A stretch of 43,611 bases of DNA from Reclinomonas americana ATCC 50394 (GCA_048213135.1 PS015286.1:1-43611); one strand, 5' to 3'. Positions 135-43,611 are shown, numbered from the stretch's first letter. The notes: generated from the letters alone by a model not told the origin. Program-made: numbers and translations.

Positions 135-3084
135 TCCCCTCGATTGCCAGCTTCCTGCCGTTCAAGATCCTGGCAGCCACCGCCAACCAGAGCATCACCA
201 TCACCGGCTACGGCTTGAAGTCCACTGACGCTGTGCAGCTGGAAATCTCGACCCAGTGCGGCCTGAGTGGCGTCGCCACGTACCCCATGGCAACAGTGTC
301 TGCCACGGGACCGGCCGGTGGTCTCCAGCTGCTGGTGGCCAAGGCACCTGATACCGCCATGTTGAACTCCAAGTACTCGGTGTGGTACGTAGGAGGAGCA
401 TGGAGGGTGGATGCTGGAGTGAGAAAGAAGCTGATTTCAGTTGAATGACATGCAGCGTCCGCTTTGTCGACATTCCCAACGTCATCAAGGCCGGCACCAA
501 TGCCCAGCTCACCGCGGTGAACGGTTCGTTTTCTTCTCCATCGTGGGAGACACAATCGACAAGTCGTCTTACTCGCTCGCGCTCTCTTCTCCCACTCGCA
601 GATGTGGGTCCGTTGATCAGTCGCGTGGCCATTCGCACGCAGCTTGCCAACCAGCAAGTCATTATCAACGCCGGCGCTGGTATTTTGTTGACGACACCAG
701 CGATTACTGTGCATGGCGCGCAAGATTGCTCAGGCACCACCAACACCGTCATCTCCAGCCTGACGACCACCACCAGCAAGATCACCATCACCTTCGACAC
801 CACGCTCGAAACGGTGCCGGTCGCCCGCTTCTTGTGCGTTGATCCGGACGGTGCTGGACCGTCGACGACGTACTTTTTGGCCACGGTGTACATTTGTTGC
901 GTTTCTTTCTTTCACTCTTTCTTTCTCCTTTCTCCTTCTGCACTCTCCTAACGATCGACTCTTGCACCGCGCGCAGTCAACGTGAACAAGGTCACGCCGG
1001 CGTCTCTGCCGCAGGGCCTGGGACCGAACAGTGCGCAGTTGACCCTCTCCGGCGTCAACTTTATCCTGGTCGACTCGACCGCCGCCGAAGGTTTCTTCCC
1101 GCCGGCTCCCGGAGGCGCAGCCACGGCCTTCTTCCTGACTTCATCTTCGACGACGTGCACGACTATCGCCACCCGCTCGGAGGCACTGGAGCCGGTGAAC
1201 ACTTCATCGACATCCGATCGCCTGGTCCTCAACGTGAACACTGCCATCGTGAGCGCGGATTCGTGCACCTTTGACGCGGTGGCCACCTACAACATTTGTG
1301 GACGGTGCGTACGCAGCAAGCAAGTGGGGAGGGGGAAAACCAATCGATAAGTACTTAAATGTCCACTGGTCCACTGCAGCTTCCAAGACGGCTCGTACGT
1401 TCAAATCGGTGCGCAGTTGACCATTACGCCACCCATCGACCCGACTGTCGGCTTCGCCACCCCGCTCAACTTCCCTGTTGGCCTCGACACCACCGTGACG
1501 CTGTCGTCGCTCAATCACGCCTTCACCACTTGCTCTCGCTTCAAGTTTGTGGAGTTTGGCCAGACGTGCGCGACTGCCAACACATCTGGTTGCGTTGCCC
1601 GTTGTGTCTTCGCCCCTCCCCCTTGCCTGTTTCGCTTACCTGTTGTGATGCCGGTAGCCTTGTCGTTGACTCTGTACCAGGCTGGCGTCTTTGACGCTGT
1701 GGGTTGCGGATCAAGCACTGGCTGCGCGTCGTATAAGATCTCCGTGAAGGCCTCGCAGGCCAGTAACTCTGTGCTGTGCGTCACCACGCAGCCGGGCGGC
1801 GCATACACATCGGTGCCTGGCGACAGCTTCACCGCCGGCCTGCTGACGGTGGCCTCCTCCGCAGCTGCCAACCAAGCTGGCAGCACAGTTGCGTCGTGTG
1901 TGCGTGAGGTGCTCGAGCGAGTCGTTGTTGCACTGACATTGTGTTTTTTATTCTCGTCTTCGGCAGCTAAGCACGGGCTCTGGCATTCGCTCCGCCGTCA
2001 TCTCGTTCTCCTTCCCGCGACCGTTCAGCGCTGTTCCGCGCGTCCTCATTGGCCTGTCGGCGTTGCAAAACACCGACGTCAGCGACACGCTGATCGCCTG
2101 CAGTCTGCCGTCGGTCTCCACGATCGGCTTGTCGACGCGCTGCTCCGCATTCGGCACCTCGCACCTGAGCAGTGTGATCGTCAGTGCGTGACCGACCATC
2201 TCCATCTGTGTGTATGGCAGGGCGATTCGTGTTTCTCACCATCTTGATGCACAAGACTACATGGCCTTCAACGTCGACGTGACGAGGAGGCCCGTGGTTG
2301 CTGTGCAGACTTCGGGTCTGACTGGCACTCTGGATTGGCGCTCGCTGATCACCAACAAGGACTTCAGCAGTGTTTCGTCGCCACGCCCACTTTTCATTAT
2401 CATGTCTCTCTCGTCTTTTGTCTAACTCGTTGAGCAGGTGTACATTCTGCCGACGGGAGCCAACTTCAAGTCACCGCCGAATGTTGCCATTGCGCTGATG
2501 GGCGTGGCCACTGATCGTTTCGGCTCCAGCAACAGCGACGTGCGAAGCGACAACTTTGAGGTCAGCGTCGGCCGCCGCACGGAGACCTCGACGACAATCA
2601 ACATGACGGTGCGCGGCGACGCCCGTGTCGAGAAGTTGACCTTGCGCGGTGTCGCCATTGCCGCCGCCGCCACCGATGGTAGCATTGGCGATTACGTCAT
2701 GCTGTCGGGCGGTGAGTGATGCGCGTGCAAGGCAGTGATGTGCGTGGTGTGACTGTGGCTCACGTATGCCGTCTTTGTTGAACCGCCACAGAGACAAAGC
2801 ACACGGGCAACGAGGCCGTGTCGGTCTCGCTGATCACTTCAGTCGCTCCCTTCGGCCTGTCGAAGAGCACGTTCTCCTACGCGCTCTTCCTGCGCGGCTG
2901 GAAGACATCGTCGACTGCGGCGCTGGCCAACAACCCGTCTGTGCTGGCCGCCAACGGCGTGCCATCCACCCCGAGCAGCCCCGTGCCGAACACCTGGACC
3001 ACACTCACCATCACCCCGAGCAGCGGTGCTGGCGTGGCCGAGACGTACGTCACGTGGGTCGCCATTGGCACTCCGGCCCTCTAA
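135..3084 (+). CDS. Multi-exon extracellular-type protein: Ig/TIG-like beta-rich repeats plus three C-terminal H-type lectin-like domains (5'-partial)
   Basis: About 10 exons joined at GT-AG introns (donors 385, 524, 896, 1305, 1589, 1888, 2184, 2372, 2713). H-type lectin motifs: FPRPFSAVPRVLIGLSAL...VNYMAF; FKSPPNVAIALMGV...LRGVAI; ...TYVTWVAIG. Stop TAA at 3082-3084. Confidence 0.7.
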
Positions 3085-3133
3085 ACAGCCACACACACAC
3101 TCACGAAAAACGCCAAAACAACCTCCCTCTACA

Positions 3134-5150
3134 ATGGCTCCTTTGACGTGCGACACCTGCCGCGCCTGTTCTCCTTCTCTTTCTCTCACTTTTCTCGTTG
3201 TTTTGTATCCATCATTATCATCATGCGGGTGAGAGAGGCAGTGGACGAGCGGGAAGTGTGTGTGCGTGTGAAGATTGGCCTCACAGTGTAAGCTTTGTCA
3301 CTGTGTCCACTTGTCCCTTGTTGATTAGATGATTGCTGAGGAGGCACGAGAACGGTGTCGTCTGGAGCACGCACGTGAAGTGGAGAGTGCAGGAGTTGAG
3401 TGCCTTCAGTCTTTGTTGAAACGAAGGTCATCCCATGTTTGACTGACTGTGACTGTGAGGAAAGGTGCTGAGACCATGCGCAAACTCATCGCCACTGCCT
3501 TCTCCACTGGATCCGCGCCTGTGTCATTACTCACCTGGTGAGTGAGTGTGATTGGATGCAAAGATGTTCCGAGTTGTCTCTCACTCACATGCACACACAC
3601 ACACACAGAGGAATACGGCATGCTGGAACGCGACACTGGTGAGAGCAACACGAGCTGATCAGTCAGCTTCTGCTCCGATACTCATTCTTCCTTCTCATTC
3701 ACAGGGAAGTGTGAGTCAATGTTCTCTCTGTGTGTGTCTCCTTGTCTCCTCTTCCACCGACTTCAATGCAGATCTCTTGTACTATGCCTCCATTCGTCGC
3801 GCGGTGCAAGACTCGATCGACAGACGGCCCTCACTCGGTGCCTCAGCCGCGGAACCATTAGTTTGTGTGGTGGTCGGAGGAGGCATGGGCAGACTGCCTG
3901 CGTTCTGCTTGGATGTCGGTGAGTGGCCTCTTCTGTTCGTCGTTGTCAGCATGTTATAATCCGACGACTTGGTCGTGCACGCAGCTCGCGAGTTGCAGCT
4001 GCATGCGCGTATTGCGGTCGCCGATGCCAACCCAAAGGCGGTGGAGGCGCTGGAGAGGCGATTCGCGCCCGAGAGCACCGCTGACCCTGTGGATGCGCAA
4101 AAGCAGGTGCGTTGTCGGTGTGCGCCTTCGTGCTGTGTGACTCGTGCTCATGTGTGTGCGCCACGCAGCGAGTGTACGTCCATCCGCGCCCGTTCCTGCT
4201 GCATCCCGATCGCGTGTGCTCGCCAGCGGCTGTGCCCGAGGGTCTGCGTGAGTTCACGCACTCGGCGCATTTGTTTGTGGCCGAGTTCCTCGGTGGCTTT
4301 GGCGACAATGAGTTTTTCGTGGAGTTGATGAACCAGGTTTGCCTCCTCCTCCACCCCACTCCGCCCTCCGCCCTCTCAAACACATGCATTGCCACAGGCG
4401 GTGGAATTGTTTGCGAGTCGCAAGCACCCGGAGCTCTTTCACGTGCTTCCGTGCGACTGGTACACGTACGTGGCGCCGATCTACGCTCCCGGTATTCACC
4501 AATTCCTCTCCACGTGCGGGCGCTCCACGGATGTTACCTATGCGGTGGGCCTGCACACGGGAGCGCATGCAGTGGCAGCGGCGGGTCGTGCGTACGGTGA
4601 GCCGATTGCTCGAGTGCCGGTGCACTCGGACGCCGAGGGAACGTTTGCGTTGCCGCTGTACGAGTACGAGGCGCGAGTGGAGTTTTCGCTTCCAGCCAGC
4701 AGCACCGTGCACGGCTTTGGTGGCTACTTTACCTCGCTGCTGTGGCGAGACGATGCGATGGTGTTGGAGATTGACACGCGGTGCGCCGAGGGAACAATGC
4801 TGCCCGACACGCGCAACTCGTGGCACTGGGAAACGTGGTGGTTTCCGCTGGCAGAACCACTGTCGACCGACAGTCACCCACTGGACATTACGCTGGTCGT
4901 TCGTCGCAAGTCGCGACTCGTCACACCAGACTCGTTCTTTGCCGAGCGGTTTGTGAAGGAGAAACAGGAAATCGACGACGACGACGACACCGCCGCCTCC
5001 GGGGCATCTGCCTCGCAGTTGCCTCGCCCCGCCGTTCCCATCATGGCGCGCGCAGTGTGGTACGAATGGCAAGTGCTGCGACGCGACAACAGCGAGACGC
5101 TGACTCCGCTGCACAATGCCGAAGGGCGAGCGCAGACGTTGTACTTGTAA
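3134..5150 (+). CDS. PRMT5-like protein arginine methyltransferase, catalytic core only (no N-terminal TIM barrel)
   Basis: Spliced translation YSPEEYGMLERDTGKYLLYYASI (cf. PRMT5 YEVFEKDPIKYSQY), motif I VVGGGMGRL, ADANPKA, double-E loop AEFLGGFGDNEFFVE, VHGFGGYFTSLLW, SWHWETWWFPL and WYEW. The start ATG at 3134 is inferred from in-frame splicing. Confidence 0.8.
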
Positions 5151-6844: not shown

Positions 6845-9800
6845 TCACTGATCCGCAGCAGCAGTAGTAGTAGTGGTAGTTGTGGCAGCAGCTTCAGCGG
6901 CAAATGGCGTGTCTGCCGGCCGCCTTCGTGCCGAGGGTGAGACAGCGGGCGACGAGGCGGCCGAGCTGTATCGTCGCACGGCTGTTTCCAGCACCAAATT
7001 GTGCACGTCGGCCTTGACGAGAGGCTTGATGCGCACGTGATGCACCACCGAACCCCACGGTTCCTTCATGTTGTCACCTGCAGAGGAGAGAGTAGTGAGT
7101 TGTTCCGAACGAAAGATGCGTGCACGACATCTCACTCACCAGACATGCCGACAATGATCGGCCGCAAGTGCGACTGCACGTCGTGTTGCACAAACAGATC
7201 GCGGAGATTGCGGAGAGCCTCCTCGCCCGTCATCACCGGCATGTTGTGGTCTGCGTCGAGCGTGGACTCAGAGAGTGCTTCAGGGAAAAAAGAAACGGGT
7301 GAACACAAACCGATGAACACGAGCTCCGGCAACGCCTCCGGTTCATTCCTCACGCGCTCCTCCATCCAGTCCAGGAACAATTTCTGCGGCGGCAACGTGA
7401 GATGATTAGCGGGAGCGACAGAGTGGCGCACAGCACACGAAACTCCATTCACAAACGTCTCGGTGACGGTGACTTGCACGGTGGGATGACCCTGCACCAT
7501 GCGACACAGCGTGCGGCTGACCAGATTGTTGTCCTCAACCACCACACACCGCACTGCTGCCGTCATGGCGTCGTCGGCGTCGGACTCGAGCACCGCCACC
7601 GGGCGGGGCGACGGAGCACTGTGCGACGCCGAATCCGCACGACTCACCGCCCCCACACTGGCCCCGACCGACGACGCATCGCTGCCGCAATCCGCCGGTG
7701 GCAGCGGCGACAGAGTGCCCATCAGCACCGAGCCGGTGAGAGTGTGGCGCCGGGTGTCGGTGCTCGTAGAGTCGCTGTCGGCAGGCGAACCCGAGCTGAA
7801 ACTTGTGCTACTCGCGCCCGTGGTGAATGCCGAGGCCACCGAGTCAATCGAACTGTGGCTAACTGGAGGGCTGTACAGTGCCGCTGGCGTCGAGTGTCGT
7901 CGGTACACTGTGCGCGGAGAAGTGAGCGCGGTGTTCTGCTCATGAATGCAGGAGATGGACTTGCCTGAACGCTCCGACGCTTTGCGCTCTAGTCCGACAA
8001 TGGCCGTCGGCAGCGATGCCACCGGCGACTCGATCAGCATAGCTGTGTTGATGCTGTCGACCGGCGACGAGGCCAGCGGTGAGGAGGTCTTGTCCGCGCT
8101 GTGGAGACGAAGCGATGAGAAGCTGCCATTGAAGGATCAGCACGGAGCGACGACGTACCAGAGCATGTACGGCACGGTGATGGAGAAGCGCGAACCCACG
8201 CCCACTTCGCTCGAGTACCACATGTCGCCGTCGAAGAGGTTGCGCACCATTTCGCGTACAAGAGACAGACCGAGACCTGCAATCGCCGATTTGAGTGCAT
8301 GAGAGCGAGAAAGAAGGAGGAGAAAGGCAAGGGAAGGAGAGCTACGCACCAGTGCCCGAGTAGCGGGACTCCTTCTCGCGCACTTGGAAGAACGGTTCGG
8401 AAATGCGTCCCATGTGCTCCGGTGATATGCCGATACCCGTGTCGACAACCGTGAACAGCACCCAGAATCGCTGCTGCCGTTGCCGCTGCAGCAGCAGCAT
8501 TTGTTGCTGCGAGGGAGTGCGGACGAGGATGGAGGCCGGCTCACTCTCGCCGGTGCTGCTGCTGCTGCTGCTGCTGCTGCCGGAAGCACCATTTTCGTCG
8601 TCCGCGGCGTCGTCGTGTGCAGGAACGGCCTCCAGTGGCACGTATTCGTAGCGTGGTGCTGCATGAAGAATAGGGTGAGGGACGAAGGACGATTCAAAGA
8701 GGGATGAATTCAGTGCACCTCCATAGACACCCGGTGGCGGAGACTCCATCGGTCGCCGTTCGGTGACCTCGACCTGCAGTGTGACTTCTCCGTGACGAGT
8801 AAACTGAGCACGCACGAGAGAGTGTCAGGGCACAGACGTTAAAGTGTGATCGCAGATGGCGCGAGTTCTCCGACCTTGATGGCATTGCTCAGCAAGTTGG
8901 AGACACACTGGGAGACGCGCAGCGGATCGAGAAGCACGCGGCGCCGTCGCAAGTCTTCACTGCGAACCGCGCGACTCGTTTCCAGAGCCATCGTCAGACC
9001 CTCGCTGTGTGATGCGTGAGTTGTAACGCAAATCTGTGCAGCGAAATACACAGCGTCGCCATCCGCACCTGTCGGCCATGCGCCGCAGCTTGCGCACACA
9101 CGACTCGGCGACGGCCATGAGGCGTGTGGGAACTGGTGACAGCACGATGCTTTTCCGTCGCTGCTTCATGAAGGCGAGGAGATCTGCGAGTGAACAATAG
9201 GAGAGAGAGAGAGGGTCAGACGAGGGTGGAAGTGAAAGGTGCTGCGAGAGGGCGCCAATGCAAACCGTCAAGCAAGCTCATGAGCATCCGGGCGGATGAC
9301 AGAGCGTCTGCATAAAAAAGGACAACGTGAGACACAGGGAAGGGGGGAAGACGGAGGGAAGAGGGGAGATCGGAAAAGGGGGAAAGGACGGAAGGGAGAA
9401 AGGACGGAAGGGGGGAAGGACGGAAGGGGGGAAGGACGGAAGGGGGGAAGGACGGAAAGGGGGAAGACGAAAGGAGGAAGACGGAGGGGCGGAAGAAGGA
9501 AGATGGAAGGCGAAGGAGAGATCGAAAAAGGGAAGACGGCAGACGAAGGGAAGAAGGCAGGAGGAGTGATACAGCAAGAAATCTCGAGTGCAACATGCAC
9601 TTTCACATATTGTGTGATGCAACCACCACGCACCGCGCACACACTCATGGTTGGAGAGTGGGTTGTTCACCGACTCCGAGTACGCCTCCAACGAGGCCAA
9701 AATGCCGAAACACGGCTGCCTCAGCTCGTCTATTTTGTTCGAGTGCATCAGTGAGACAACGCTGGGAACAGGCGACTCATGACACACATCAACGAAACGA

Positions 9801-14490: not shown

Positions 14491-17400
14491 ATGAGCACAC
14501 CTCGCGCCACCTCCTTCGCCACACCCACCCCTCGCCACCAGCGACAACCACTCCCTCCACCTTCCTCCCGCACTCGCCGCCCTGTTCTCCCTCCCGGCAG
14601 CAGTCCCTCCAGCCACGCAGGCTCCACCTCTGCTCTCGCCGGTTCCCCGGCCACACATGCCAGCTCCTCATCAGCCTCCTCCACCTTCTTTGGCGCCCGC
14701 TACGACACATTCACTGTGCAGCCACATCAACAACAGCAGGCATCTCGAGCAGGCACTGGTGCACTTCAAAATCGGTCCGTTCATTGAAACCGCTGCTGAC
14801 TTCAATTGCAGAATCGAGTGTCCGATCGTCGTCCGCCGCCGCCGCCGCCACTCCCCGCGGTGTTCCATCCAGCAGTGGCGGTGGATTTGCGGGTATCGCG
14901 CCACCGTCCACGCACATCATCGCTGCCATTATCGAGAATCGCGTCAAGGAAGTTGTGATACCGGCGTGTTCGGCTTGTTCGGTTTTGCGTCTCACTCTCG
15001 TCGTTTTGTCGGCTGCAGATTGGTGTGGCGTGGATGAATCTGCGCTCGCCCGAGCTGCACGTGATGCAGTTCACTGACAACCCGACGTACGTGCTGCTGC
15101 TCACGAAGCTGCACTCGTTGCAACCGATTGAGGTGAGAGGCAACAAAACACACTCCTTTCTCCACATCGGCACACCACCACCACCACCAACAACAACAGC
15201 ACCAACAACAACTACAACTTTACTAATCCAAACAGCAGAGTCCATAGACACACACAACAACAACTATTTGCTCTTCTCTAACAGTCATCCATCTTTCTAG
15301 AGATTCCACGCCTTTTCTTTTCTCCTCCTCCCCCTCCCTGACCTCTCTTACCCCTTCCCCAATTGCCAGTTGGTGCTGCCGAACACTATGGCCGAGTCGC
15401 CGCTGGCCGACCTCCTGCGATCCGAGTTCTCCGCCGCCAACCTCTCCATTGTGGCGCGCAAGTACTTCAACGACACGCAGGGTGCACAACTCGTGCAGCG
15501 CTTCCTCGTGGCCGAGCGCAAGAGCAGCTTCGAGATCGACTTTTCCATCAAGTGAGCAACGACACACAAGAGTCGCATACCAACCAACCCCTTCACATAT
15601 GTGCACTGCAGGTACCTGGCCATGTCCGCCAGCGGAGCCCTGCTCAAGTTTGTCGAGTACTTGCAGAACATTAGCTTCGCCCCGGACTCCCTCAAGGTCT
15701 GTGCTATGATTACCACTCCCACTCCATCCACCCCTTCTCCTACTCAGTCGCGGCAGGTGGTGAGTCTCGGCTACGAATCGCAGCTGCTGGTCGACGCTTC
15801 GACGGCTGCCAACCTCGAACTGCTGCGCAACAATCGGACCGGTGCCACCACCGACGCCGTCGGTACTCTCATGTCCACCATCAACCACACTCGCACGCCA
15901 ATGGGTGCCCGACTGCTGCGCACGTGCATTCTGCAGCCGACCAATGATCGGTAATGGGTGCAGAATTGCCAATCCAAGCCGGTACTTACATGAGTTGCAG
16001 GGCCACCTTGGAAACTCGACTGGCGTGTGTCGACACACTGCTGCACAGCGAGCAGCTGTTCTTCGAACTCGGTGCCGTGCTGCGCCACTTCACCGACGTG
16101 GACCACCTGCTCGCCCAGTTTGTGCAGATTCCGCGAAGTCCCGACACGGCCGTCAACCACGCCGGCGCCTCCTCGGCCAGCGGCTCTGGAGGAGGAGGCG
16201 GCGGTGGGCGTGCCGGCGACTCGAACCAGTTCAACACGCGCGTTGCACAGCTACGCATCAACAACATCCTGTTTCTCAAAACCGCACTCCAGCAATGCAT
16301 CCGCATGCGTTCGGTTCTGGCCGGTCTGCTCTCTGTCACCATTTCTTTCTCTCTTCCCCTCCATTCACCGTTCTTCTCCTCACCGCACAGGCCACAATGT
16401 CAGCGATCCCATCTTGCGCATCTGTCTCGAGCGTCTCTGCGCATCGGCCGTCGACGACTTGCTTCGCCGCATCGAGGACACCATCGACCCCGATTCGGGT
16501 CTCGGACCCATGACCAGTCGGCAACGCGGTGGCGGAGGTTGCGTTCTTCGCCATCTCGTCGTCGCCCCCCACTGTATCCCTCCTCATCCACACAACTGCA
16601 GTGCTGCATGTGCAAGCTCAGCAAATGTATGCCATCCGCCCCGGCATCAAGAACCTGCTCGACTTGGCCCGCCGTCGATACGCAGAGACCACCGAGGACA
16701 TTCACGAGCTGCTGCAACAGTACCGCGACGAGTTGCTGCTGCCGGCCATCTCCCTCCAATATCAGGTTTCGCGTGGGTATTTCTTGACGCTGCCGGCCAC
16801 GGATGACTGCCGCCTTGCTGTCAACGAGCTGCACCGTGACATTTTCGTGCAGCGCTCGCAACAGAGCAAGAAGCTGCACTTCTCCACGCTGGAGCTCGTC
16901 TCCCTCAACGACCGCCTCCGCGATGTGCAATCGGAGATCTTTCTCCGCACCGCCGAGGTCTGCTGGCTGTGTGGATAACTCTTGACAAGAGTCAACAATC
17001 TCTTACAAACCAACGTAGGTGCTCGAGTCACTGGTTGTCGACGTGCGACCGCACCTGTACGCCATGTACCTGATCTCGGAGAGCATTGCCCTTGTCGACA
17101 TGCTGCTGTCACACGCCGAACATGTGTCGCTGAGCGAGACCTACGTCCGACCCGAGTTCACCGATGGCGGTCCACTGGCCATCAAGGGCGGTCGTCATCC
17201 AGGTCTGCGAGTATCTCTCTCGCCCCTAGCAATCCATGATCCACACTCACCCACCTGCGCAGTGCTGGAAAAGATCTCGTCATCGCCAGTGGTTCCCAAC
17301 GACACCTTCATCTCCGACTCATGCACGCTGCAAATCATCACCGGCCCCAACATGGCCGGCAAGTCAACGTACCTGCGACAAGTGGCCCTCATCACCATCT

Positions 17401-27017: not shown

Positions 27018-28227
27018 TCATTCTCGCTCCTCTTCCTCATCGTCATCATCGCCGCCGAGCTCGCCAGCCTCCTCGAGCAGCACAGCGCGGACGGCCGAGT
27101 TGGCGGCGACGTCGGACGGCTTCAATTTCTCCTTGTTCTCAATGTCGGTGCGCGCTCCGCTCTCCAGCAAGAACGTCACCACCTGTGTGTGTGCATCCCT
27201 CCCGGCGTCAGCGAGAGACATTAGTGAGAGAGTGAGTGAGGGGAACCAACGAAACATGCAAAAGGCCTTCGGTCGCCGCCAAATGCAGCGGCGTGTTGCC
27301 TTCGGCGTTGACCACGTCGAGCAGGGCGTTGCGTTCGACCAGCATGGAGGCGATCAGTGGATCGTCCTTGTTGACGCAGGCGCGATGCAGAGGGTACTCT
27401 TGCCGCGTATCCTGCCGCGTAACAAGAAGCGCCAATGAGCACGGCGATGATGGCACGATGGATGACATCGTCGAAAACGCAACAGCAATGTTCGGGTTTG
27501 CGCCATTGGCGAGCAGGATCTCGACGACCTTGACGTGCGCACGCGAGGCGGCATAGAACAGCGCCGTCCGTCGTTCCTCGGTCTGCGGAGGGGCATCGAG
27601 TGAGAGAGGCGAGAGGATAGGGTGAGAGAGGAAAGAGATCGTGAAGGATACCATCTCGTTGATCAGGGCCTCCAGTTCGAGCAGCTTCACCACGACCTTG
27701 TCGTGGCCGGCACTGGCGGCGGAGATGAGCGGGGTGTAGCCGCCCTCGTCGCGGGTGTTGACCTGGGAGAAGAAGAGAGGGAGGAGGGGATGAGGGACAA
27801 GGAGGAAAGGAGAGGGCAGGAGAGGGAGAAGAGCGGGCGAGACAAGGCAGACAACATCACTCTGAGGATGAGAAGGGCAGCAAGGCGATCTTTCTCTCAG
27901 AGGATAAGTCTCACTCTCTATGCATAGATGCACAACATGCTGCTGACTCTCTCTCTCTCTCTCNNNNNNNNNNNNNNNNNNNNNNNNNNNNNNNNNNNNN
28001 NNNNNNNNNNNNNNNNNNNNNNNNNNNNNNNNNNNNNNNNNNNNNNNNNTGCCCAGTGCAACAGCGTTCGCCCATCAGCATCCTGCCACACAGTGTGAGA
28101 GACAGCTCATCCCTCTCGCCTCTCACAGCCCACTCACCCTCTGATTGATGTCCACTCGTCCAGTGGCCAGCATCTGCGCGACCTTGTGCTGCTCACCATC
28201 ACGCACAGCTTCCACGGCGGCCTCCAT
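27018..28227 (-). CDS. Ankyrin-repeat protein, gankyrin/PSMD10(Nas6)-like
   Basis: DADGRTLLHW, DEGGYTPLISAASAGH, RTALFYAASRAH, EYPLHRAC, EGNTPLHLAATEG. About 7 ANK repeats with an acidic tail; one exon is partly in an N-gap. Confidence 0.75.
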
Positions 28228-28330: not shown

Positions 28331-28402
28331 GATCCGTTGGTGTAGTGGTATCATTCCAGTTTTGGGTACTGGAGGCCGTGGGTTCGATCCCCACACGGGT
28401 CC
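28331..28402 (+). tRNA. tRNA-Pro (anticodon TGG), intronless
   Basis: Cloverleaf: acceptor GATCCGT/ACGGGTC, D-arm TGGTGTAGTGGTATCATT, anticodon stem CCAGT/ACTGG with loop TTTGGGT, T-arm GTGGG-TTCGATC-CCCAC, discriminator C. Confidence 0.92.
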
Positions 28403-29147: not shown

Positions 29148-32100
29148 NNNNNNNNNNNNNNNNNNNNNNNNNNNNNNNNNNNNNNNNNNNNNNNNNNNNN
29201 NNNNNNNNNNNNNNNNNNNNNNNNNNNNNNNNNNNNNNNNNNNNNNNNNNNNNNNNNNNNNNNNNNNNNNNNNNNNNNNNNNNNNNNNNNNNNNNNNNNN
29301 NNNNNNNNNNNNNNNNNNNNNNNNNNNNNNNNNNNNNNNNNNNNNNNNNNNNNNNNNNNNNNNNNNNNNNNNNNNNNNNNNNNNNNNNNNNNNNNNNNNN
29401 NNNNNNNNNNNNNNNNNNNNNNNNNNNNNNNNNNNNNNNNNNNNNNNNNNNNNNNNNNNNNNNNNNNNNNNNNNNNNNNNNNNNNNNNNNNNNNNNNNNN
29501 NNNNNNNNNNNNNNNNNNNNNNNNNNNNNNNNNNNNNNNNNNNNNNNNNNNNNNNNNNNNNNNNNNNNNNNNNNNNNNNNNNNNNNNNNNNNNNNNNNNN
29601 NNNNNNNNNNNNNNNNNNNNNNNNNNNNNNNNNNNNNNNNNNNNNNNNNNNNNNNNNNNNNNNNNNNNNNNNNNNNNNNNNNNNNNNNNNNNNNNNNNNN
29701 NNNNNNNNNNNNNNNNNNNNNNNNNNNNNTTGCAGTAGACGCCTGTTCTGCAGATTTCGACCTGTCTCCGTGCAAGAACAGATGAGAAAGCGAGAACGAG
29801 TGCTGATTAAGGGAGATTGAGAAGAGGCAGGTTACGGAGAGACTGCCAGGAAGGTATGCAAGAGGGCAGACGTGGTGAGGGGAGAGAGAAGGACGACAGG
29901 AACAGCCATGTGCGTTGGTTATTCTGCACACTGTTCGTGAAAGAATGGGCGAGAACCAGCGGCGACTAAGCTGGAGAGAAAAGTCAATGAAACAGAAGGG
30001 GCAGAGCCACAGCCAGGCAGATGAATAGAGCGATGGAGACAGCTCTCTGGCTCTCTTATCCCAGTCGCTATCACCCTCTCTGCGTGTCTTTCTCTTCTTC
30101 GTCTGCCTCTCTCCTTCACTGTCACTGTCTTTCTCTTCTTCTTCTTCTTCTCTCTCACTCTCTCTGCTTCTCTTCCTTTCTGTCGTCGTCATTCTTCTTC
30201 CTCCCTCCCTCCTCGCCCATCCCTCTTTCTCTCACAGTCCTGTTCTCTCACTTCCCTACTCCTCTTCCCAATCCCTTCTCCCTCCTTCCCCTCTCACCCT
30301 CTTCCCGCTTCCAGGACGCGACATCATCGGCCTGGCGAAAACCGGCAGCGGCAAGACAGCGGCCTTTGTGCTGCCAATCCTGCAAGCACTGCTCGACCAA
30401 CCGGGCGTCGCCCCCGCCTATTTCGCCGTCATTCTCGCACCCACGCGGTTCGCCTCCCCATTCCCTCGCACACACGCTCTCCTCCCCCGTTCTCCACCAC
30501 CTCTCATCGCTGCCCCCGTTGTGCACAGTGAACTGGCGTACCAGATCAACGATCAGGTGGTCGCCCTCGGCACCGACATTCGCGTCAAGTCGTGTGTGAT
30601 TGTCGGTGGTGTGGACTCGACACAGCAGGCGCTGGCGCTGGCCAAGAAGCCGCACATTGTGATTGCGACTCCGGGTCGTCTCATTGACCACCTGGAGAAC
30701 ACCAAGGGCTTCCATTTGAAGAACTTGAAGTATTTGGTGCTCGACGAGGCCGACAAGATGCTGGGGTTGGATTTCGAGGTCGAACTCAACAAGCTGCTGC
30801 AAGTGATCCCGCGCGATCGACGAACATACCTCTTCTCGGCCACCATGACCTCGAAGGTGGCCAAGCTGCAAAAGGCCTCCCTGTCCGATCCCGTCAAGCT
30901 GCAAGTGTCCTCCAGCAAGTACGCGACGGTGCGTTCGTTGTTTTCCCTCTTTTCGATGCACACACACACTGATCTTCGTGAGCGCACAGGTCGACACATT
31001 GATTCAGAACTACATTTTGATGCCCGAGGCCCACAAGACCTGCTACCTCGTCTACCTGCTCACGGAGTTTGCCGGCAATACGGTCATTGTGTTCACGTCC
31101 ACGTGCGCCACCGCACAACGACTGGCCATTGCATTGCGGTTGCGTTGTTCATACACAAAAAAACGCTGCTGCTGGCAATCTCACTCGTCGCTGTGATTGC
31201 AGGGCGCTGGGAATGGGTGCTATTCCGCTGCACGGCCAAATGTCACAACCGAAGCGCCTCGGTGCGCTGAACAAGTTCAAGGCACGCCAACGAAATATCT
31301 TGCTGGCCACTGATGTCGCTGCGCGGTGAGTGTGGTGGCTGGGGACGGGAGAAGGCGTTGGTAATTCGTTCTTTCGCGTGCATGCATCGTTCACCTGTTT
31401 GTTTCATCGTCGTACGCTATCTGTTGTATTTTGACTTCTCGTTTCGACGTTACTCTTCTTACTGTGCCTGTGTACTCCCTGTCGCCTTGCGTGTGTCATC
31501 CGAAGTCTCTTCGCTCCCCCGATTTATCGCTCACTATTTCGTGCCCCTGGCACACTTCGTCTTAATTACGTGGCAGTTCCTCATTTCGCCTCTTTGTTCA
31601 TCATTGTGCGTGTCTCTCGTCCTTCGACGCATCCAGCCTCTCTCTCATCCTCTCTGTTGCTTCTTCTGTTCGCCTCTCTCTTCTTCCTCCGGCCTGTGCC
31701 ACTCCATGCATGTGTTTCCCCTCGTTTCCTCTCCCAAGTTGGTGTCGCTTTCTCTCATTTCCACTCCTCTTCCTTCTGTATCGCCTCTCCATCCTGTTCC
31801 CTTCCATCACCCACTGATCCGTTCCCTTACATCGCCCTCTCATCCGTTCCCCTTTATCAGCATTCCATCTTCCCCTTTTTTCACCCTCCCATCCTTTCTC
31901 CCTTCACCCCTCTCCCGTTTCCTCACCCTTCCCCCTTCCCCATCCCTTCCCTTTCCTCACCCTTCCCCCTTCCCCATCCCTTCCCGTTTCCTCACCCTTC
32001 CCCCTTCCCCATCCCTTCCCTATCCTAACCCTTCCCCTTTACCCCCTTGGCAGTGGCCTGGACATCCCCGCCGTCGACCTGGTGGTCAACTTTGACCTGC

Positions 32101-32339
32101 CGACCAACGCCAAGGCCTACATTCATCGCGTGGGTCGCACTGCGCGTGCCGGCAAGAGCGGTCGCGCCATCTCCTTTGTGACGCAGTACGATGTGGAGCT
32201 GCTGCAGCGCGTGGAGATGTTGCTCGGCTTCAAGCTCGCACCGTTCCCCACCGAGGAGGAGGCGGTGCTGTTGTTGCGTGAGCGCACCGAAGACGCACTG
32301 CGTCTGGCGGCCATGGAGATGCGCGAACTGGAGGATTCG
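28571..32339 (+). CDS. DDX47: DEAD-box RNA helicase DDX47/RRP3 (3' end lost in gap)
   Basis: Q-motif TFEALGV...[98 protein letters not shown]. Confidence 0.92.
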
Positions 32340-32767
32340 NNNNNNNNNNNNNNNNNNNNNNNNNNNNNNNNNNNNNNNNNNNNNNNNNNNNNNNNNNNNN
32401 NNNNNNNNNNNNNNNNNNNNNNNNNNNNNNNNNNNNNNNNNNNNNNNNNNNNNNNNNNNNNNNNNNNNNNNNNNNNNNNNNNNNNNNNNNNNNNNNNNNN
32501 NNNNNNNNNNNNNNNNNNNNNNNNNNNNNNNNNNNNNNNNNNNNNNNNNNNNNNNNNNNNNNNNNNNNNNNNNNNNNNNNNNNNNNNNNNNNNNNNNNNN
32601 NNNNNNNNNNNNNNNNNNNNNNNNNNNNNNNNNNNNNNNNNNNNNNNNNNNNNNNNNNNNNNNNNNNNNNNNNNNNNNNNNNNNNNNNNNNNNNNNNNNN
32701 NNNNNNNNNNNNNNNNNNNNNTCAGAGAAAAGGTGGAATCAGAGGGTGAGAGGAAGGGTGAACAAAC

Positions 32768-35700
32768 CAGCAATGGCACCAATGCAAGCCAAGCTCGAGC
32801 CCAGGTAGGCGAGCTGGCTCATCTGGCTGATGCCGGCAGCGTGGCCGGCCAGGTAGCCAGCGAGGAAGAGACCGCCGGGGATGGCGTACAGGTAGTTGTA
32901 CTCTGGCCTGTGACATGGAACGGCAGAGGTGAGTGAAAAATAAAGTATGCTTGAACACTCTTCAAACACGAAGGGGGGACGCAACGGGTCAGTGTCACGG
33001 CGGAACATCTCAAGCATGCGCTGAGTGACGAGGAAGCCGCCACCAATGTTGACGGCCGACACCAGCACAGCCAGCGACGCCAGGGTGCCACCGAACGAGC
33101 CTGTTGAAATGAATACAGTGTGAGCGACAAGGGTAGGAGATGGGGCACGGGCGCACAGCGGACGCAACTCGGCACCACACCACCGTTCATCAGCACGAGG
33201 CCGCCGACGGCAGTCATGCCCGACACGGCGTTCGTGACGGACATGAGCGGTGAGTGGAGAGCGGGAGTCACACCCCACACGACCTGTGCAGAGCGAGAAT
33301 TAGACATGAGGCTTGGTGCTTCATGCACTGCGGGAAGGGAGGTGGGGAGGACGCAACGTTGTAACCGACGATACCGGCCAGCGCGAACGTCATGCACATG
33401 TTGGAGAAGTTGACGTCGGGCGACGCGTAGCCGAGGGCCAGCAGCTGTCACCACACGTGAGCTGCGCTGCTGTTGCTCTTCTTGACGAAATCTCTCTCTC
33501 ATCCACGTACCACGCTCATGCCACCGCTGAGGCCCAGGGCCGACTGCATCGTCGACTTCCACATGTCCACAGGCTCAGCAACCTTCGGCACCGGCTTGGG
33601 CTTGGGAGTAGCCGGTGGCGGACCGACATTGCGATCCGGCGGCCACAGCAGGCGGCCTGCGTCAAAAAGTGAGGGAGGTGCAAGGAAGGGGAAAGAAATG
33701 GTGGCGTCGTACGTACCCTCCTGGTGGATAATGGCGCCACGCACGACATCGTCGTCGAGATCAATGCCAAACTCGCCCTTCACGTTGCCGACCGAGGTGA
33801 TGAACTTGGTAATGTTGTTGGCAAACAGAGTGCTGCGAGAGAGCGTATGTGATGAGAAGAGCACCAGTGACTAGAAAACGAANNNNNNNNNNNNNNNNNN
33901 NNNNNNNNNNNNNNNNNNNNNNNNNNNNNNNNNNNNNNNNNNNNNNNNNNNNNNNNNNNNNNNNNNNNNNNNNNNNNNNNNNNNNNNNNNNNNNNNNNNN
34001 NNNNNNNNNNNNNNNNNNNNNNNNNNNNNNNNNNNNNNNNNNNNNNNNNNNNNNNNNNNNNNNNNNNNNNNAGGAGAGAGGAGAGAGGAGAGAGGAGAGA
34101 GACGCACAACAGGATGGCAATCAAAAGGCGATGCATGCGCCGCCAATTCCATCACGCAACACACGATCGAGCGAGAGAGAGAAAGAAAAAGAAGAGATGC
34201 ACAAGAGCATTTTGAAGATTGAGTTTGAAGATGGCAGTCTCAGGCGATGCATGCGCCGCCAACTCCATCACCACGCAACACACCCACCCACCCACCCACC
34301 CACCCACATACACACACGAGAGAGAGAGAGAGAAAGAAGAGGCGCACAAGAGGGTGATAAGGCGATGCATGCACCGCCAATTCCGTCACCACACATACGA
34401 GAGAACGATACGCACACCAGGATGATAGAAAGGTTGGACAAGTATAACAGCGGTGATTCGAGTCCTCCCACTTCCCGTCACAATGTAATACTCCCGAGAC
34501 AGAGACAGTGAAAGTGAGACGGGTTCAACGAAGGTATTTCAAATCCTCCCATGGCCTTCGCCACGCGGCACAAGTGAGAGAGAGAGAGAGTGAGCGAGAA
34601 GGCGATGCACGATCACCCATTTCCATCGCCGCGAACAAAAGCGAACACATGCAGCTGACGAAAAACGAACTCATGCACGCTTCCCCACTGCACTCATTAT
34701 ACTCCGTACAGGAGCGGAAGAAACGAGAAAAGCAGGAAATGCAAATGCACGCCCACCCCACTTCCTCCCCCACCACCACGCAACGCACCGCACAATAGCA
34801 CCCATGTTCTTGGCAGTACCAATGGCCGCCAGACCGGCGACACCACCACCAATCACGAGCACCTTCGCGGGCGGCACCTTGCCGGCGGCAGTGATCTGGC
34901 CAGTGAAGAAGCGACCAAACTGGTTGCTGTGCACGACCCACCAATGCGGTGAGGAAGAGGAGGCAAAGCGAGGGAAAGCGAGAGTGCACACGGTCGACGA
35001 CGAAACGAAGCCTCCACCACGGCACGGTAGCCGGCAATGTTCGCCATCGACGAGAGCACGTCCATCGACTGAGCACGACTGATGCGCGGGACGCAGTCCA
35101 ACGCAAACGTCGTCATCTTCTTGGCGCCGAGCTTCTCCACGAGGGGCCTGCATGCATCGTCAATGAGCGACAACGATGCAACACACCAGCGCACGATCTG
35201 CCAAACTCAACTTGTTCAGGCCAGGTTGAATAATAGACACAAGAGTGGCACCGTCCTTCAACAGCGCAATCTCGGCATCAGACGGAGGGCGGACCTGTGG
35301 CAATAGTCAGCGACCATCAATCAATCGCCTCATTCGTCGACGTGGTATCGCGTTTCGGTTTCAACAAACCTTGAGCACCATGTCGGCACCCAGAGCCTCC
35401 TCCTTCTTCTTGGTGATGCGTGCACCAGCAGCCTCGTACGCCGCATCAGTGAACGACGACTCGGCACCAGCGCCCGACTCAACAACCACCTTTGCACACC
35501 ACGCAATTCAATATGACAAGCTGCAATCATGAAAAGTGAGAACAGAGAGAGTGAGGTTATAACCTTGAAGCCGGCCTTGACCAGCTGAGCGACAGTCTGC
35601 GGCGTTTGAGACACACTGCGTGACAGAAAGAGAGTGAGACATGGCCTCCGACATGTTTTTTTCTCAACTGCCACGACAGGTGCAGAGCGAGAGTCACAGT

Positions 35701-36148
35701 GGCATCGCGCATGCACACGTGTGTACGCGACAACAGGAGAGAGACAACAAAGAGAGAGCAAGAAAAAGGGGGGGTTTGCATTACACAAAAGTGAGTGACA
35801 TTTCTCGACTCACCGACGCTCCTTCGGCCAACTCTCCTTCGGCACACCCTATACGCACACACACAGGCATGAGCGCCTACCACTGCATCGCCCAACGCAT
35901 GCATCCACGCACGCAACAATCGTAATGTTGGAGTACTTGATGCCCTTCAAGTCCTTCTTCGGAGCCTCCTTCTTCTTCGCAGGAGCAGCGGCGGCGGCAG
36001 CGGGTGCAGCAGCAGCGGCCGGGGCAGCCTGCGCCAGCGCGACACGCGATGGCGCACCGACCAGAGTCGACAGCGCCGCAAAGCGAGTGGTGCCATGCAC
36101 GCTCACGCGTGACATGGGCGTCAGACGGCCAAGCAGACCGGCAAACAT
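32768..36148 (-). CDS. NNT: Mitochondrial NAD(P) transhydrogenase, alpha-beta fused type (middle and 3' parts lost in gaps)
   Basis: Presequence [119 protein letters not shown] continuing into the beta part. Confidence 0.95.
34126..34629. repeat. Intronic ~117-bp-period repeat with a conserved 30-bp partly palindromic core
   Basis: AGGCGATGCATGCGCCGCCAATTCCATCAC-like cores at 34126, 34242, 34360 and (degenerate) 34600. Confidence 0.8.
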
Positions 36149-37703: not shown

Positions 37704-37706
37704 GTG

Positions 37707-37738
<32 letters not shown>

Positions 37739-38066
37739 GCTGTTGATGACGGAGTGGTTTGAGAAGACACACTCTGCGCGCAACAAGAACTAAACCGACC
37801 CGCGAAAGAGAGTGGAGGACAGACGTCGTTTCGACGCTCTTTGACTTCGTTGACCTCGTTGGCCGTGTACTCAACACGGTACAACACAGGGCAGCACTTG
37901 CTATACAACGTTACTGTCAAACCCCTCCCTGTTCTCTTCCCCCTTCAGCCTCCTCAACACCATCCATCTGGGAGGTTCATTTGCCTTCTTCTTCTCTCTC
38001 TCACACACACAGCCCAAGTACATAACACAATGAGCGTGCGCGGTGAAGTTGGAATCCACAGACACG

Positions 38067-41000
38067 TTACATGCCGGCCAGCGATGGTGATGAGCCGTAC
38101 ACGTAGACCGGTGCGTAGTTGCTCGAGGGCGACGGCAGCGGGACCGGTGGGCTGACAATGCACTCAAACTGCGCGAGAGGGTTTAACAACACATCGCCTT
38201 CGTGCATCACATTCTCTCTTGTCACGTCTCTCACCTCCCAGTCCATGAATGCAGAGCCCGAGTTGGAGCACGGACTGTTGGGACACGAGTTAGCAGCTAC
38301 CACCTCGCCTGTGGTCACTCACAGCACCACTGAACGCAACGGATTGCCAAAGAGCTGCAGGCCGAGAGCGAGCGAGAACTGGCATCGCGACAGGTTGTTG
38401 CAGAGCGACTGCAACACACCTGAGTGTGTAACATTAAGACAGGATGAGAATTCAAGTTGAACAAAGTGCACGAATATCTGCACACAAACCAACGCTCTCC
38501 AAATCACTGGCACAGTAGCCGTCACCACCGCCGCAGTTCGAGCCATTGGTGCGTCCCCACACGGCCTTCAGGATCTGCACACTGGAACCTGGCGGACAAA
38601 TGGCCACCAGCTGATCGGTCTGGCACGTGACCTTGCGGAGACCGGCGCACACACCATTGGTGGTTGTCACTTGTCTGGCCATGTGGGTGAGCGACTGCTA
38701 CGAAAGATCGCGACAAGCAGAAAAATTCATCACTCACCCCGGCGGGCACACACCCGAGCACTGGCCAGTGATGGTGTCGCAGCCGGAGCCGTTGCACAGT
38801 GGCGACGGGCACGAGATGGACAGGTCGGGCGTGCTGACCGCGTTTGGTGTCACCGTCACCAAGCTCTCCAGCGACTGCCCGGTCACCGTGTCGGTGGCGC
38901 GAACGTTGACTTGCACGGCCGACGGCAGCGATGTGGAGGCGTTGATGACGCGCAGCAAGGCGTCGGGGGTGCTGGTGCCCGGCTTCGGCACCACATCAAA
39001 GATGGAGGCCAGGGTCAACAGCGTCCATTGCACTTGATTGGCGGAGGTGACAGAGAGTGTGCCGACCACCACATTGTCGACGGCTGTCGGCGAGTCGAAC
39101 GAGCTGGGAATCAGTTGCATATCTGCGTGGCATGGGTGAGCGTGATGAGGGCATCAAAGACAGAGTTTTCACGTCTGAGAGCACTCACTGGACGGCTTGG
39201 CGAGTTTGGTGAGCACAATGGCCGACGCCGTAATCTGTTGGTTAGAGTGCTCGTCGATCGCCGCCACGTGCACAGTCAGCGTGTCCGGCAAGGTGCTGGC
39301 AGAGTTGTACAGCCCGTCGGAGGCAATCAGATGGCCTTCAAAGATGTCGAATCCTGCGCAACGAAAAGCTTGTTAACACACACGCAAACGAAAAAAAAAA
39401 GCCGTCGTCACACAGCCTACTCACGAGACCAGTCGTCGGGGAACGAGGTGTCAATGACAAACGTGAACGGTCCGGTGCCATCAATGTCAAACGCGTGCAG
39501 CTCGCCGAAATCGTGACCCGGCTGAATGTCCTCGGCGTACGACGTGGGTCCGTATGTGAGAAGTGGCGCCACGTTGACGGCGACCAGAATGTTGCCGGTG
39601 GTCATGCCAGCGGTGTTGCTGACAGACAAACGCAACGACAGCGGCGTCGACAGCGTGGCGGGCAGGCCACCAGCACCGACAGCGAGTGCGCCAGTGGAGG
39701 AGTTGAGGGTGAAGAACGAGTTGAACGTGTCTCCATCCCCGCTGACCAGAGTGTAGGTCAGCGACGGATTCACGTGTCCATCGCCGGCGTTCACCGTGCC
39801 AACGGCAGTCAAGGCGGGCGTGGGCAGGTTGAGAGGCGTTGTCACCGGGATCAGGCCGAAAATATACGGCGCCGGACCACCGCCCACCAAACTACACGCA
39901 GTGAGAGAAAGGGGAGGAGGAGGGAGAGAGAAGAGACGGCGACGCACATGACAATCTGCACTCGGGCGAGCAGCGCGCTGGTCAGCGGGTCGGTGATCGA
40001 CAGCGCGAACGTGTACGCGGCGGCGACATTCGGGTTGAAGCTCAGCGGGGCAAACACCGAAAACCTGCACAACATGGTGAGGGGGGAAATCACACGAAGC
40101 AGACAAGGTGCAAGGGACGTGCGGCGCACGTCAGGTTTTCCGAATTCTGCGCCACCGAGCCAGATGTCAGTGGAGCGCCATTGACTCCACCACCATTCGC
40201 GGTTGCACCCGTGCCTGTTGCACATGCAGGTATCAATAATGGATCAAGAGCGACATTCGCAGGACGGGCACTCACCGACAGCATTGTCGGGGAAGAAGGT
40301 GAGCGGATTGATCGACATCTGGTTGATGTTGGCGGCCGCAGATGGATCGCCATCAATATCCAGGGTAGCCGTCACGTCGCTCAACTTGCGTCCCTGTTGA
40401 CCGTCCAGATCGACATTGATCTGTGTGTGGAGGAGGAGAGAAAAAACGGGGAGTTCAGTATCTAGGGATGTGTGAGGATGGTGAATCGCAGAGACGGCAC
40501 GCAACCGAGAACTCAAAGTTCCACCTGCGTGCACACAAGCGTCCCTGGATGAGAAGAGTGGAGGAACAGGATTGAGGAGCGTGCAGAGGGACGCAACACG
40601 GCGCGGAGGTTTGGCGAGGTGCCGGTGGTTCCAGTGGCAAACGAGTATGTGCCGTCACCATTGGAGTTGAACACTACGCGAGTGCAAGAGGCAGACGAGA
40701 GTCAAAGGATTACGTGGGATACAAAGATGTTGACTGCAAGCGTACCGTTTTGACCGCGGACCTTGCCACGCAGCGCCACTGAGAAGAAAGAGTAGTGAGT
40801 ACATCTTGCCTACTGATTCGATGTGGTGCTGGATTCAGACTGCACACCTTCGACATTGTTCTCACGATCGACAGTCCACGAGCCGTTGGCGTTGCCGGAG
40901 CCGAAAATCACATTCGACGTCACATTCTGGTCGTAAGTGCCCGGTGCCGTGCCGACAATGACAGTCATGGAGACAGAGGCCAGAAGAACATTGGACTGAT

Positions 41001-42910: not shown

Positions 42911-43199
42911 CGCTTGATGTGTAGCAGATTCCGAACGCATCTGCTGTCTCTCTTGCTCGCTCACTCGCGTGCACACACACACAGTGAAAAGAGGTGCACG
43001 TTCTTCACATAATGGCGTGCCTTTGGTGTGTGCAGTAGCAACACAGCACTCACACACACAGCGAACTAAACATTTAAACGAGATGTCTTTGCTCACCAAT
43101 CGTTGCAAAACTTTTGTTTCCCGCCTAGGCGGACGCGAACCGAAGTCTATCGATTCATGTGGCTATTATTCATGTCTCGCTGCTACTGCTACTGCTCGA

Positions 43200-43611
43200 T
43201 CACACCCACGCGCCCCAACCGGGAAACAGTCGCGACAGGCGCTCCGGATCGGTGGCCTGCTGAATCAGCTGCCGCACTTGGCCCTCGGTGGAGTAATGCT
43301 GGCCCTCCTCGACACCATGCAGCTTTTCGGAGACGCGCAGCAGCGCTCGCTCGGCCTGTCGACTGCCGCCACCTGTGGTGGCCGAGGCAGCAGCTGCCGC
43401 CGCAGCAGACGCCGCCGCCGCTGCAGCCGCTGCCGCCGCAGCCGCGGCGCCAGCACCACTACCGCGACGTCGGAGCAGCGCATCAACCTCGGTACGTTGT
43501 GACGACATGTCGGCGTTTTGCACACGCAGTGCCTGTGTGCGGCGTCACTTCAGCATCCGTTCACAGCGAGAGGGAGAAGGGGAGGCGGCACGCAACCTTG
43601 AATGGCGACAG
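43200..43611 (-). CDS. ATM: ATM/Tel1 PIKK kinase, C-terminal FATC exons (5'-partial)
   Basis: LSPFK|ALRVQ...[51 protein letters not shown] matches the ATM C-terminus (human ...[22 protein letters not shown]). Confidence 0.9.

Follow-up and report, generated by a model that had tools for sequence, protein, structure and literature searches.

A register-shifted second class of 5' splice sites in routine use in a 43.6 kb window of the Reclinomonas americana genome

A "+1 shifted register", where each base pair formed by a 5' splice site with U1 small nuclear RNA (snRNA) is moved by one position, has been described for human U1, with a test oligonucleotide that carries G at +6 (passages on U1 registers in PMC4856993), and all of the validated non-canonical registers in humans together amount to about 1.5% of 5' splice sites, according to the parts of PMC4856993 and PMC11162779 that deal with them. 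In the relevant passages of PMC11162779, the usual cut is placed 5 nucleotides (nt) upstream of the pair between the intronic G and U6, in all cases until a -1 case (4 nt) was found in STAT3. In C. elegans, the +1 G-to-U change of unc-73(e936) activates cryptic 5' sites, as a passage of PMC6140464 relates. The current report deals with the 5' splice sites (donors) of a 43,611-nt stretch of the Reclinomonas americana ATCC 50394 genome (GCA_048213135.1, PS015286.1:1-43611; the whole stretch is called the window below), which comes from a draft eukaryotic assembly; its 43.6 kb have a G+C content of 56%, seven runs of N and short, densely packed introns. The ordinary donors of this window have the form G/GTNNGT, where the slash marks the cut and where the strong positions are the exonic -1G and the intronic G+5/T+6. 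Beside them we find donors of the form /GTTNNGT, mostly GTTGCGT and next GTTTCGT and GTTGAGT, in which the downstream G-T is one base farther from the cut. The analysis confirms that such register-shifted donors are a real second class and in routine use, a conclusion that stands on homology-anchored junctions, on an enrichment far over positional independence and on a strict specificity for T as the extra base.

The homology-anchored introns were placed with a protein-to-genome aligner that applies a flat cost to any GT...AG intron (with GC starts penalised) and assumes no donor motif. Full-length homologues retrieved with single-exon queries served as input, 11 for the NAD(P) transhydrogenase NNT, 8 for UPF1 and 7 for a DDX47-like DEAD-box helicase. 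The closest of them by identity reach 87% for the NNT exon, 81% for the UPF1 exon and, for the DEAD-box exon, 72% in the ten best matches (to 74% further down); no near-identical protein was found in the homologue searches with the exons of these three genes. The same junctions were obtained from all homologues (NNT 11/11, UPF1 8/8, DEAD-box 7/7). The set comprises 23 introns, after the removal of four junctions from 27: two at the edges of assembly gaps (33871 and 20266), the pair 34779/34417, on which 9/11 homologues agree, and, within low-complexity sequence, 24577, on which 7/8 agree. GTT-NN-GT donors are found at eight of these 23 introns. At all eight the local alignments run without gaps and with conserved residues on either side of the junction, and the alignment score falls by 11-26 units when the donor in question is forbidden, so the cut sites are fixed.

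Six of the eight sites lie on the minus strand in NNT, each of them placed by 11/11 homologues. They are GTTGCGT at 35911..35917 (intron 35917-35849, junction YSNITI/GVPKE), GTTGAGT at 35205..35211 (intron 35211-35148, where forbidding the donor costs 16-26 units), GTTTCGT at 35000..35006 (intron 35006-34927, gap-free junction) and three further copies of GTTGCGT, at 33351..33357 (intron 33357-33284, gap-free junction), 33162..33168 (intron 33168-33101) and 32979..32985 (intron 32985-32908, junction RRDTDP/PEYNYLY). UPF1 contributes GTTGCGT at 19879..19885 on the minus strand (intron 19885-19812), where 8/8 homologues give the gap-free junction PEKP/MFFY and forbidding the donor costs 17 units, and the helicase gene contributes GTTGCGT at 31139..31145 on the plus strand (intron 31139-31202; 7/7 homologues, gap-free, with a cost of 18-22 units). 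A first-pass annotation of the window had listed 20 shifted donors, and all 20 heptamers are present at the positions and on the strands that it gave. As donors, six of them are supported by homology, three by motif spacing and seven by the gene finder described below, and the other four (3395, 7443, 38340 and 43596) stayed unverified or ambiguous. The list was also incomplete, in that the homology-confirmed donors 33168 and 32985 had been missed. It had further been claimed that conserved residues fix several of the boundaries. This holds for I/GVPKE in NNT, for KP/MFF in UPF1, for the DDX47-like gene, on which all homologues agree, and for the kinase His, which donor 9798 alone provides; the ATM-type boundary FK/AL was left unverified. 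As a separate observation, the NNT intron 35490-35563 (minus strand, 11/11 homologues) starts with GTTATAACC and ends with CAAAG; it belongs to neither of the two donor classes, its AAG acceptor is unusual, and the use of a CAG that lies 31 nt upstream of that acceptor would disrupt the frame.

For a census of the whole window we used a small Viterbi gene finder, retrained on the homology-supported codons and introns, in which all GTs score equally and only the acceptor, a branch-like motif, intron length and coding potential are scored. This donor-neutral finder recovers 21-22 of the 27 homology-consensus introns exactly. Run with three GT penalties, it predicted 121, 104 and 90 introns, among which 20, 18 and 17 have GTT-NN-GT without G+5, as compared with 1, 2 and 1 that have a base other than T as the third base. 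These counts suggest that shifted donors make up roughly 15-20% of the predicted introns in the window, in keeping with the earlier estimate of nearly one intron in five; in the homology-anchored set the share is 8/23. The finder shifts some boundaries, either within the frame or by 5 nt at each end of the intron (9804 for 9798, 32980 for 32985 and 43591 for 43596); part of the class of "other" donors (23-41 introns) is noise for this reason, and the intron total is approximate. An early neutral finder with weak codon statistics yielded too few introns, and one that rewarded a GT at +5/6 or +6/7 yielded too many, among them three false, repeat-length introns starting with GTGTGG in the intronless WD40 gene at 36624-37910. 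An enrichment of k-mers anchored on the branch motif gave no discrimination.

Strand counts point the same way. Among sense-strand matches to GTTN[not G]GT, 18/50 are predicted donors, compared with 86/2921 of the other sense GTs. Within the gene zones, to which the strand counts given here and below refer, GTTGCGT occurs 21 times in sense and 4 times in antisense and GTTTCGT 5 times and 0 times, respectively, and the sense counts for heptamers with another third base are 0 for GTAGCGT, 4 for GTCGCGT and 5 for GTGGCGT. The extra base in shifted donors is strictly T, and in the 20 curated shifted sites G+6/T+7 is found in 20/20 and G+5 in 0/20. The ordinary donors are more varied than GTGCGT, GTGAGT, GTTCGT and GTACGT, the four forms named in the first-pass annotation: GTTTGT (a common one, with a sense to antisense ratio of 26:4), GTCTGT and GTGTGT are also in use, as are donors with G+5 and without T+6, namely GTCTGC, GTGAGA, GTGAGC, GTTCGC and GTTGGC.

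The two classes differ in the last base of the exon. At homology-anchored donors, -1G is found in 15/15 ordinary and 1/8 shifted cases (Fisher 3.3e-5), in a comparison that omits just the four junctions mentioned, which lie by assembly gaps or low-complexity sequence. In curated sets of 33 ordinary and 20 shifted donors, which were hand-picked from the model output with the rows for G+5-only and "other" donors omitted, the proportions are 26/33 and 5/20 (p = 1.7e-4). When the downstream G-T is taken as the anchor, both classes merge into a single 7-mer, G-[G/T]-T-N-N-G-T; since the shifted class is without -1G and the ordinary class has it, the G+1 of a shifted donor takes the -1G slot of the shared motif.

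Three ways in which the appearance of a separate class might arise without there being one are a positional preference (T-rich +3/+4), shared intron descent of the kind seen in introner-like families, and homopolymer errors in the assembly; jointly we regard them as highly improbable. At +3, T is overall more frequent than any other base (41/104 introns), and the assembly is a draft, interrupted by its seven runs of N. When the donor columns are shuffled so that the positions become independent, however, 2.05 +/- 1.3 shifted donors are expected (maximum 9 in 20,000 shuffles) and 18 are observed, an excess, for the introns of the window, over the position-independent null against which the first-pass annotation had proposed to test the pattern. 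The bodies of the introns are equally unlike in all comparisons, with mean local alignment scores of 14.2 within the shifted class, 13.5 within the ordinary class and 13.8 between the classes, and an introner-like family was rejected for the window because the shifted introns are no more alike than the others. An assembly artefact is excluded by the exonic base, since a spurious T in an ordinary donor would preserve its -1G, which is lost here.

It might also be supposed that the boundaries are misplaced, the true intron being either a GC-AG intron that starts 3 nt downstream (GTT/GCGT...) or one with a GT donor 5 nt downstream. The GC donor is the best fallback of the aligner at GTTGCGT when the GT is forbidden, it stays in frame, and at one junction, WNFEFS/GTTGCGT, it would restore the V seen in the paralogous WNYEFSV/GTGCGT. 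On the other hand, a GC start would insert one amino acid into conserved blocks that are gap-free in all homologues, would upset the ankyrin repeat spacing at 27483 and is impossible for GTTTCGT and GTTGAGT, which share the pattern; GC-AG introns were rejected on these grounds. The GT donor 5 nt downstream causes a frameshift and costs 13 score units at 32985. We consider misplacement very unlikely.

In other respects the shifted-class introns are ordinary major-type GT-AG introns and form no repeat family. Their median length is 70.5 nt, as compared with 69 nt for ordinary introns, their base composition is alike, and CAG acceptors are found in 17/20 shifted and 30/33 ordinary cases; the likeness in length, composition and acceptor indicates that both classes are handled by the same spliceosome. 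Introns of the minor spliceosome (U12-type) are marked by the extended donor motif /RTATCCTT together with the branch site TCCTTAAC. Neither signal is present at the shifted introns, which have CTNAY branch-like motifs and CAG acceptors as the ordinary ones do, and the U12-type assignment was rejected.

These properties can be accommodated, we think probably though with modest confidence, by major-spliceosome GT-AG introns in which the 5' splice site is read one base displaced, i.e. in the +1 shifted register. U1 snRNA would bind the 7-mer G-[G/T]-T-N-N-G-T alike in both classes. In the shifted class, intron G+1 would pair with U1 C9 at the place usually taken by -1G, U+2 would be mismatched with C8, U+3 would pair with A7, and G+6/U+7 would pair with C4/A3. 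The cut might then be set by the sole GU present, one base upstream of the site implied by the U1 register, and U6 would have to bridge one extra nucleotide to reach G+6/U+7. Such donors probably originated by insertion of a T after the GT, an event that would alter neither the cut site nor the frame of translation and would free -1G to drift. As this reading would have it, the GU cut is accompanied by G/U at +6/+7 and not at +5/+6 (in the eight homology-anchored junctions and in 20/20 curated sites), and -1G is statistically dispensable where G+1 occupies its slot; the signal tracks the G-T anchor and not the cut site, as U1 pairing predicts.

The first-pass annotation had proposed that the shifted donors are used routinely and had preferred a bulge as the mechanism. 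Routine use of a second class is supported; the bulge fits less well than the one-base shift. In a bulged-U register, G+1 would pair with C8 and U+2 (or U+3) with A7, the other U would bulge out, G+6 would pair with C4 and U+7 with A3, and the exonic partners would be unchanged. The donors do have exactly one extra nucleotide between +2 and +5 (GT-T-GCGT, GT-T-TCGT and GT-T-GAGT), it is always a T beside the T of GT, the arrangement matches the degenerate bulge at +2/+3 that human cells have been shown to use (Figure 1C of PMC4856993), and more base pairs would form than in the shift, namely G+1:C8 plus any exonic pairs. A bulge would, however, leave -1 opposite C9, so that -1G should persist or even strengthen, and it falls to background; the exonic -1G:C9 pair of the canonical register is not kept. 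For this reason the shift is favoured over the +2/+3 bulge, which appears to us unlikely.

Several observations weigh against a one-base shift read by a canonical U1, or against its generality. Six of the eight homology-anchored shifted donors belong to one gene, NNT, and all of the evidence comes from one window. The curated -1G comparison, its sets having been chosen by hand with rows omitted, was not blind. GTAAGT, the textbook best match to U1, fits the proposal poorly, with 0 sense and 4 antisense occurrences. C is found at the real +5 position of 19/20 shifted donors, as compared with 12/33 at the corresponding +4 of ordinary donors (p = 2.8e-5), and GTTGAGT is rare despite the common GTGAGT; canonical U1 pairing leaves both this excess and this rarity unexplained. 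A or C is found at the real -1 in 5/8 and 8/20 shifted donors, as compared with 13/15 at the -2 of ordinary donors (judged by eye), so that the one position mirrors the other loosely. Every U1 and U6 pairing named above is one that we infer from the donor sequences, and, as the cut had always been 5 nt from the G:U6 pair before STAT3, a routine U6 register displaced by +1 stands unproven. The misfits in C+5, in GTTGAGT, in GTAAGT and in the -1/-2 mirror may allow for a divergent or an additional U1 or U6.

As alternatives to the bulge, the first-pass annotation had named a variant U1 or U6 snRNA and altered U1C/Prp8 specificity. A dedicated snRNA variant would make the two classes two parallel donor codes, through a paralogue of U1 whose C8 is replaced by A, a perfect match to GUU, and/or through a change in U6 or in U5/Prp8 by which a cut-to-G:U6 spacing of 6 nt instead of 5 nt is accepted. 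The sharp definition of the class (T only, C+5 almost throughout, GT at +6/+7) would suit such a variant, and the absence of GTAAGT from the sense strand hints at an unusual relation between U1 and the 5' splice site. The main features, on the other hand, are already explained by a canonical U1 in the shifted register, and we rate the variant as rather improbable. An Rfam scan of the window gave no snRNA gene (a tRNA-Pro alone reached the gathering threshold, next to sub-threshold chance matches with E<=1), a result that does not directly contradict a variant. If there were indeed two donor codes, about a fifth of all introns would need a flavour of spliceosome not seen elsewhere.

The remaining shifted donors are distributed over other genes of the window. 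In the ankyrin gene (27018-27861, minus strand), the donor-neutral finder selected GTTGCGT at 27477..27483 (intron 27483-27412), where the Pfam Ank profile coordinates are continuous with no indel over the junction, and GTTTCGT at 27249..27255 (intron 27255-27183), where the junction ...TEGLLH/VVTFLLESGA fits, by eye, the spacing of what we take to be the ankyrin repeat consensus. In the histidine kinase gene (7132 to about 11000, minus strand), GTTTCGT at 9792..9798 (intron 9798-9730) is the only donor that gives ...KCS/HELRQP, with His as a split codon; HELRQP at this junction is presumably the histidine-kinase H-box. The finder instead chose 9804, in frame and 6 nt upstream. In the H-lectin-like gene (1-3084, plus strand) all four donors come from the donor-neutral finder: GTTGCGT at 896..902 (intron 896-976), where stops close the read-through and one spliced frame is open; GTTGCGT at 1589..1595 (intron 1589-1657), where the 69-nt intron keeps the frame and has no stop, so that the read-through is open; GTTGCGT at 1888..1894 (intron 1888-1966), with an H_lectin Pfam match in the downstream exon; and GTTTCGT at 2372..2378 (intron 2372-2437), with the read-through closed by stops. 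A probable donor in the MSH4-like MutS gene (14365-18275, plus strand), GTTGCGT at 16538..16544 (intron 16538-16601), was likewise selected by the finder, and its read-through stays open; three weakly similar MSH4-like homologues (about 45-52% identity over one exon) put this junction at three different spots, and such homologues were too distant for the aligner, which created spurious in-frame "introns" with them.

Two further donors lie on the minus strand in a repeat-domain gene without Pfam matches (38000 to about 42800), where the finder placed GTTGCGT at 40591..40597 (intron 40597-40525) before, and GTTGCGT at 40499..40505 (intron 40505-40421, one spliced frame open) after, a micro-exon of 19 nt. 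The predicted micro-exon, 40506-40524, reads ..WNFEFS, and at about 41650 there is a paralogous motif, WNYEFSV, with a standard GTGCGT donor after it.

The four unverified or ambiguous sites, at all of which the heptamer is present, lie in the following contexts. GTTGAGT at 3395..3401 (plus strand) is a candidate donor after the short first exon of a PRMT5-like gene (about 3300-5150, plus strand), where neither a gene model nor homology fixes the boundary and the first exon is non-conserved. GTTTCGT at 7437..7443 (minus strand) is a plausible candidate donor in the part of the histidine kinase gene that encodes the receiver domain; its intron, 7443-7384, would be 60 nt, in frame and stop-free, and the donor-neutral finder reads through it. 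A PDB search with this read-through gave a chance match only, and Pfam gave no matches with single short histidine-kinase and receiver exons. GTTGCGT at 38334..38340 (minus strand) is ambiguous, having as a rival the standard GTGAGT at 38322, in frame and 18 nt downstream, with a common acceptor at 38275; the finder took neither. GTTGCGT at 43590..43596 (minus strand, candidate intron 43596-43533) precedes the final, FATC exon of a PIKK gene; that exon is mapped from about 43203 to the window end on the minus strand. The spliced frame at 43596, ..SPFK/ALRVQ.., is open, with the FATC domain downstream; only 15 nt of the upstream exon lie inside the window, and the finder chose 43591. Further sense-strand GTTGCGT or GTTGAGT sites at 12738-12808, 34655-34784 and 42789, all on the minus strand, could be extra members of the class. 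Downstream of the site at 12808 comes an intron-like stretch with CACAG at its end, the site at 34784 was selected by the donor-neutral finder yet adjoins assembly gaps, and that at 42789 is a GTTGAGT.

The gene map, drawn from Pfam matches on stop-to-stop open reading frames and an AT-skew profile, includes, beyond the genes located above, a GST-like gene (5700-6785, plus strand), a WD40 gene (12163-14326, minus strand), UPF1 (18579 to about 24600, minus strand), the DDX47-like helicase gene (about 30000-32300, plus strand) and NNT (32739-36148, minus strand). The tRNA-Pro (TGG) found by Rfam lies at 28331-28402 on the plus strand, between the ankyrin and helicase genes. The WD40-repeat gene without introns (36624-37910, minus strand) is an open frame of 428 codons and sits amid an otherwise intron-dense region. 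Four long introns occur among those of about 70 nt: one of 728 nt in the helicase gene (31326-32053, plus strand), which contains C/T-rich tandem repeats with a period of 34/69, and three on the minus strand of 684 nt (22124-22807), 431 nt (22893-23323) and 411 nt (20651-21061); an Rfam scan of the four gave no matches. Low-complexity sequence is also found as a C/T-rich repeat at 1-110 (plus strand), one frame of which reads LPLPLL... at the window start, and as CCCCTTT-type runs at 20153-20266 (minus strand) adjoining a run of N within UPF1.

In a full-text literature search, taken at the level of titles and abstracts, no report was found of a lineage in which a substantial proportion of introns belongs to a shifted class. 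Among the matches listed, GTTGCGT retrieved primers only, GTNNGT retrieved nothing on a shifted class in titles and abstracts, and queries on shifted registers and base-pairing led to human, yeast, tunicate or therapeutic topics. This suggests that, while shifted and bulged registers are already known from human work, their high frequency here is new. If true, a genome in which about one fifth of the introns have the G/U one base farther from the cut would amount to a natural large-scale experiment. The class would uncouple the reading by U1 from the position of the cut, and would imply that U6 and the geometry of the active site routinely tolerate an extra nucleotide; that -1G would here follow the U1 register and not the cut site bears on whether U1 or U5/Prp8 lies behind its conservation. 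Shifted donors will be misplaced or missed by gene finders that were trained on GTNNGT, and even the donor-neutral model slid 32985, 9798 and 43596 by 5-6 nt. Should RNA data and the snRNA genes agree, splicing specialists would find real interest in the class.

Comparison with the known systems brings out what is shared and what might be particular to this genome. In unc-73(e936), one cryptic site reportedly consists of a GU formed from the -1G and the mutant U, and U1 suppressors are said to exist; as in the present donors, a cut at /GUU... would then lie one base upstream of the U1 register. That site is cryptic, arises by mutation in a single gene and is out of frame, whereas the class in the window is native and in frame. 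The tandem donor D2 of STAT3 exon 21 resembles the shifted donors in having a cut-to-G:U6 spacing off the canonical 5 nt, as far as the passages on it in PMC11162779 describe. It is one base shorter (GU at +4/+5) and a single human site demonstrated by means of a suppressor U6, while the spacing here is predicted to be one base longer and to occur in many introns. Human donors in which a single nucleotide bulges out at +2/+3 (Roca et al. 2012; Tan et al. 2016, as treated in parts of PMC4856993) have in common with ours an apparent insertion between +2 and +5, with a U beside U+2; they keep the exonic pairs, whereas here -1G is lost and the frequency is far greater. The closest likeness in layout is to the human +1 shifted-register sites (Roca & Krainer 2009, as cited in the corresponding part of PMC4856993), in which, as here, the cut is at GU and the bases resembling the consensus are displaced downstream by one, so that +6 is a G, and in which, as proposed here, G+1 replaces -1G opposite U1; a test oligonucleotide in Table 2 of PMC4856993 has the same layout. 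The human shifted motif is GUNAAGU-like, whereas here it is GUUGCGU or GUUUCGU, with a U+3 able to pair with A7, and the human register is rare, whereas here the shifted donors make up roughly 15-20% of the predicted introns and eight of the 23 anchored by homology.

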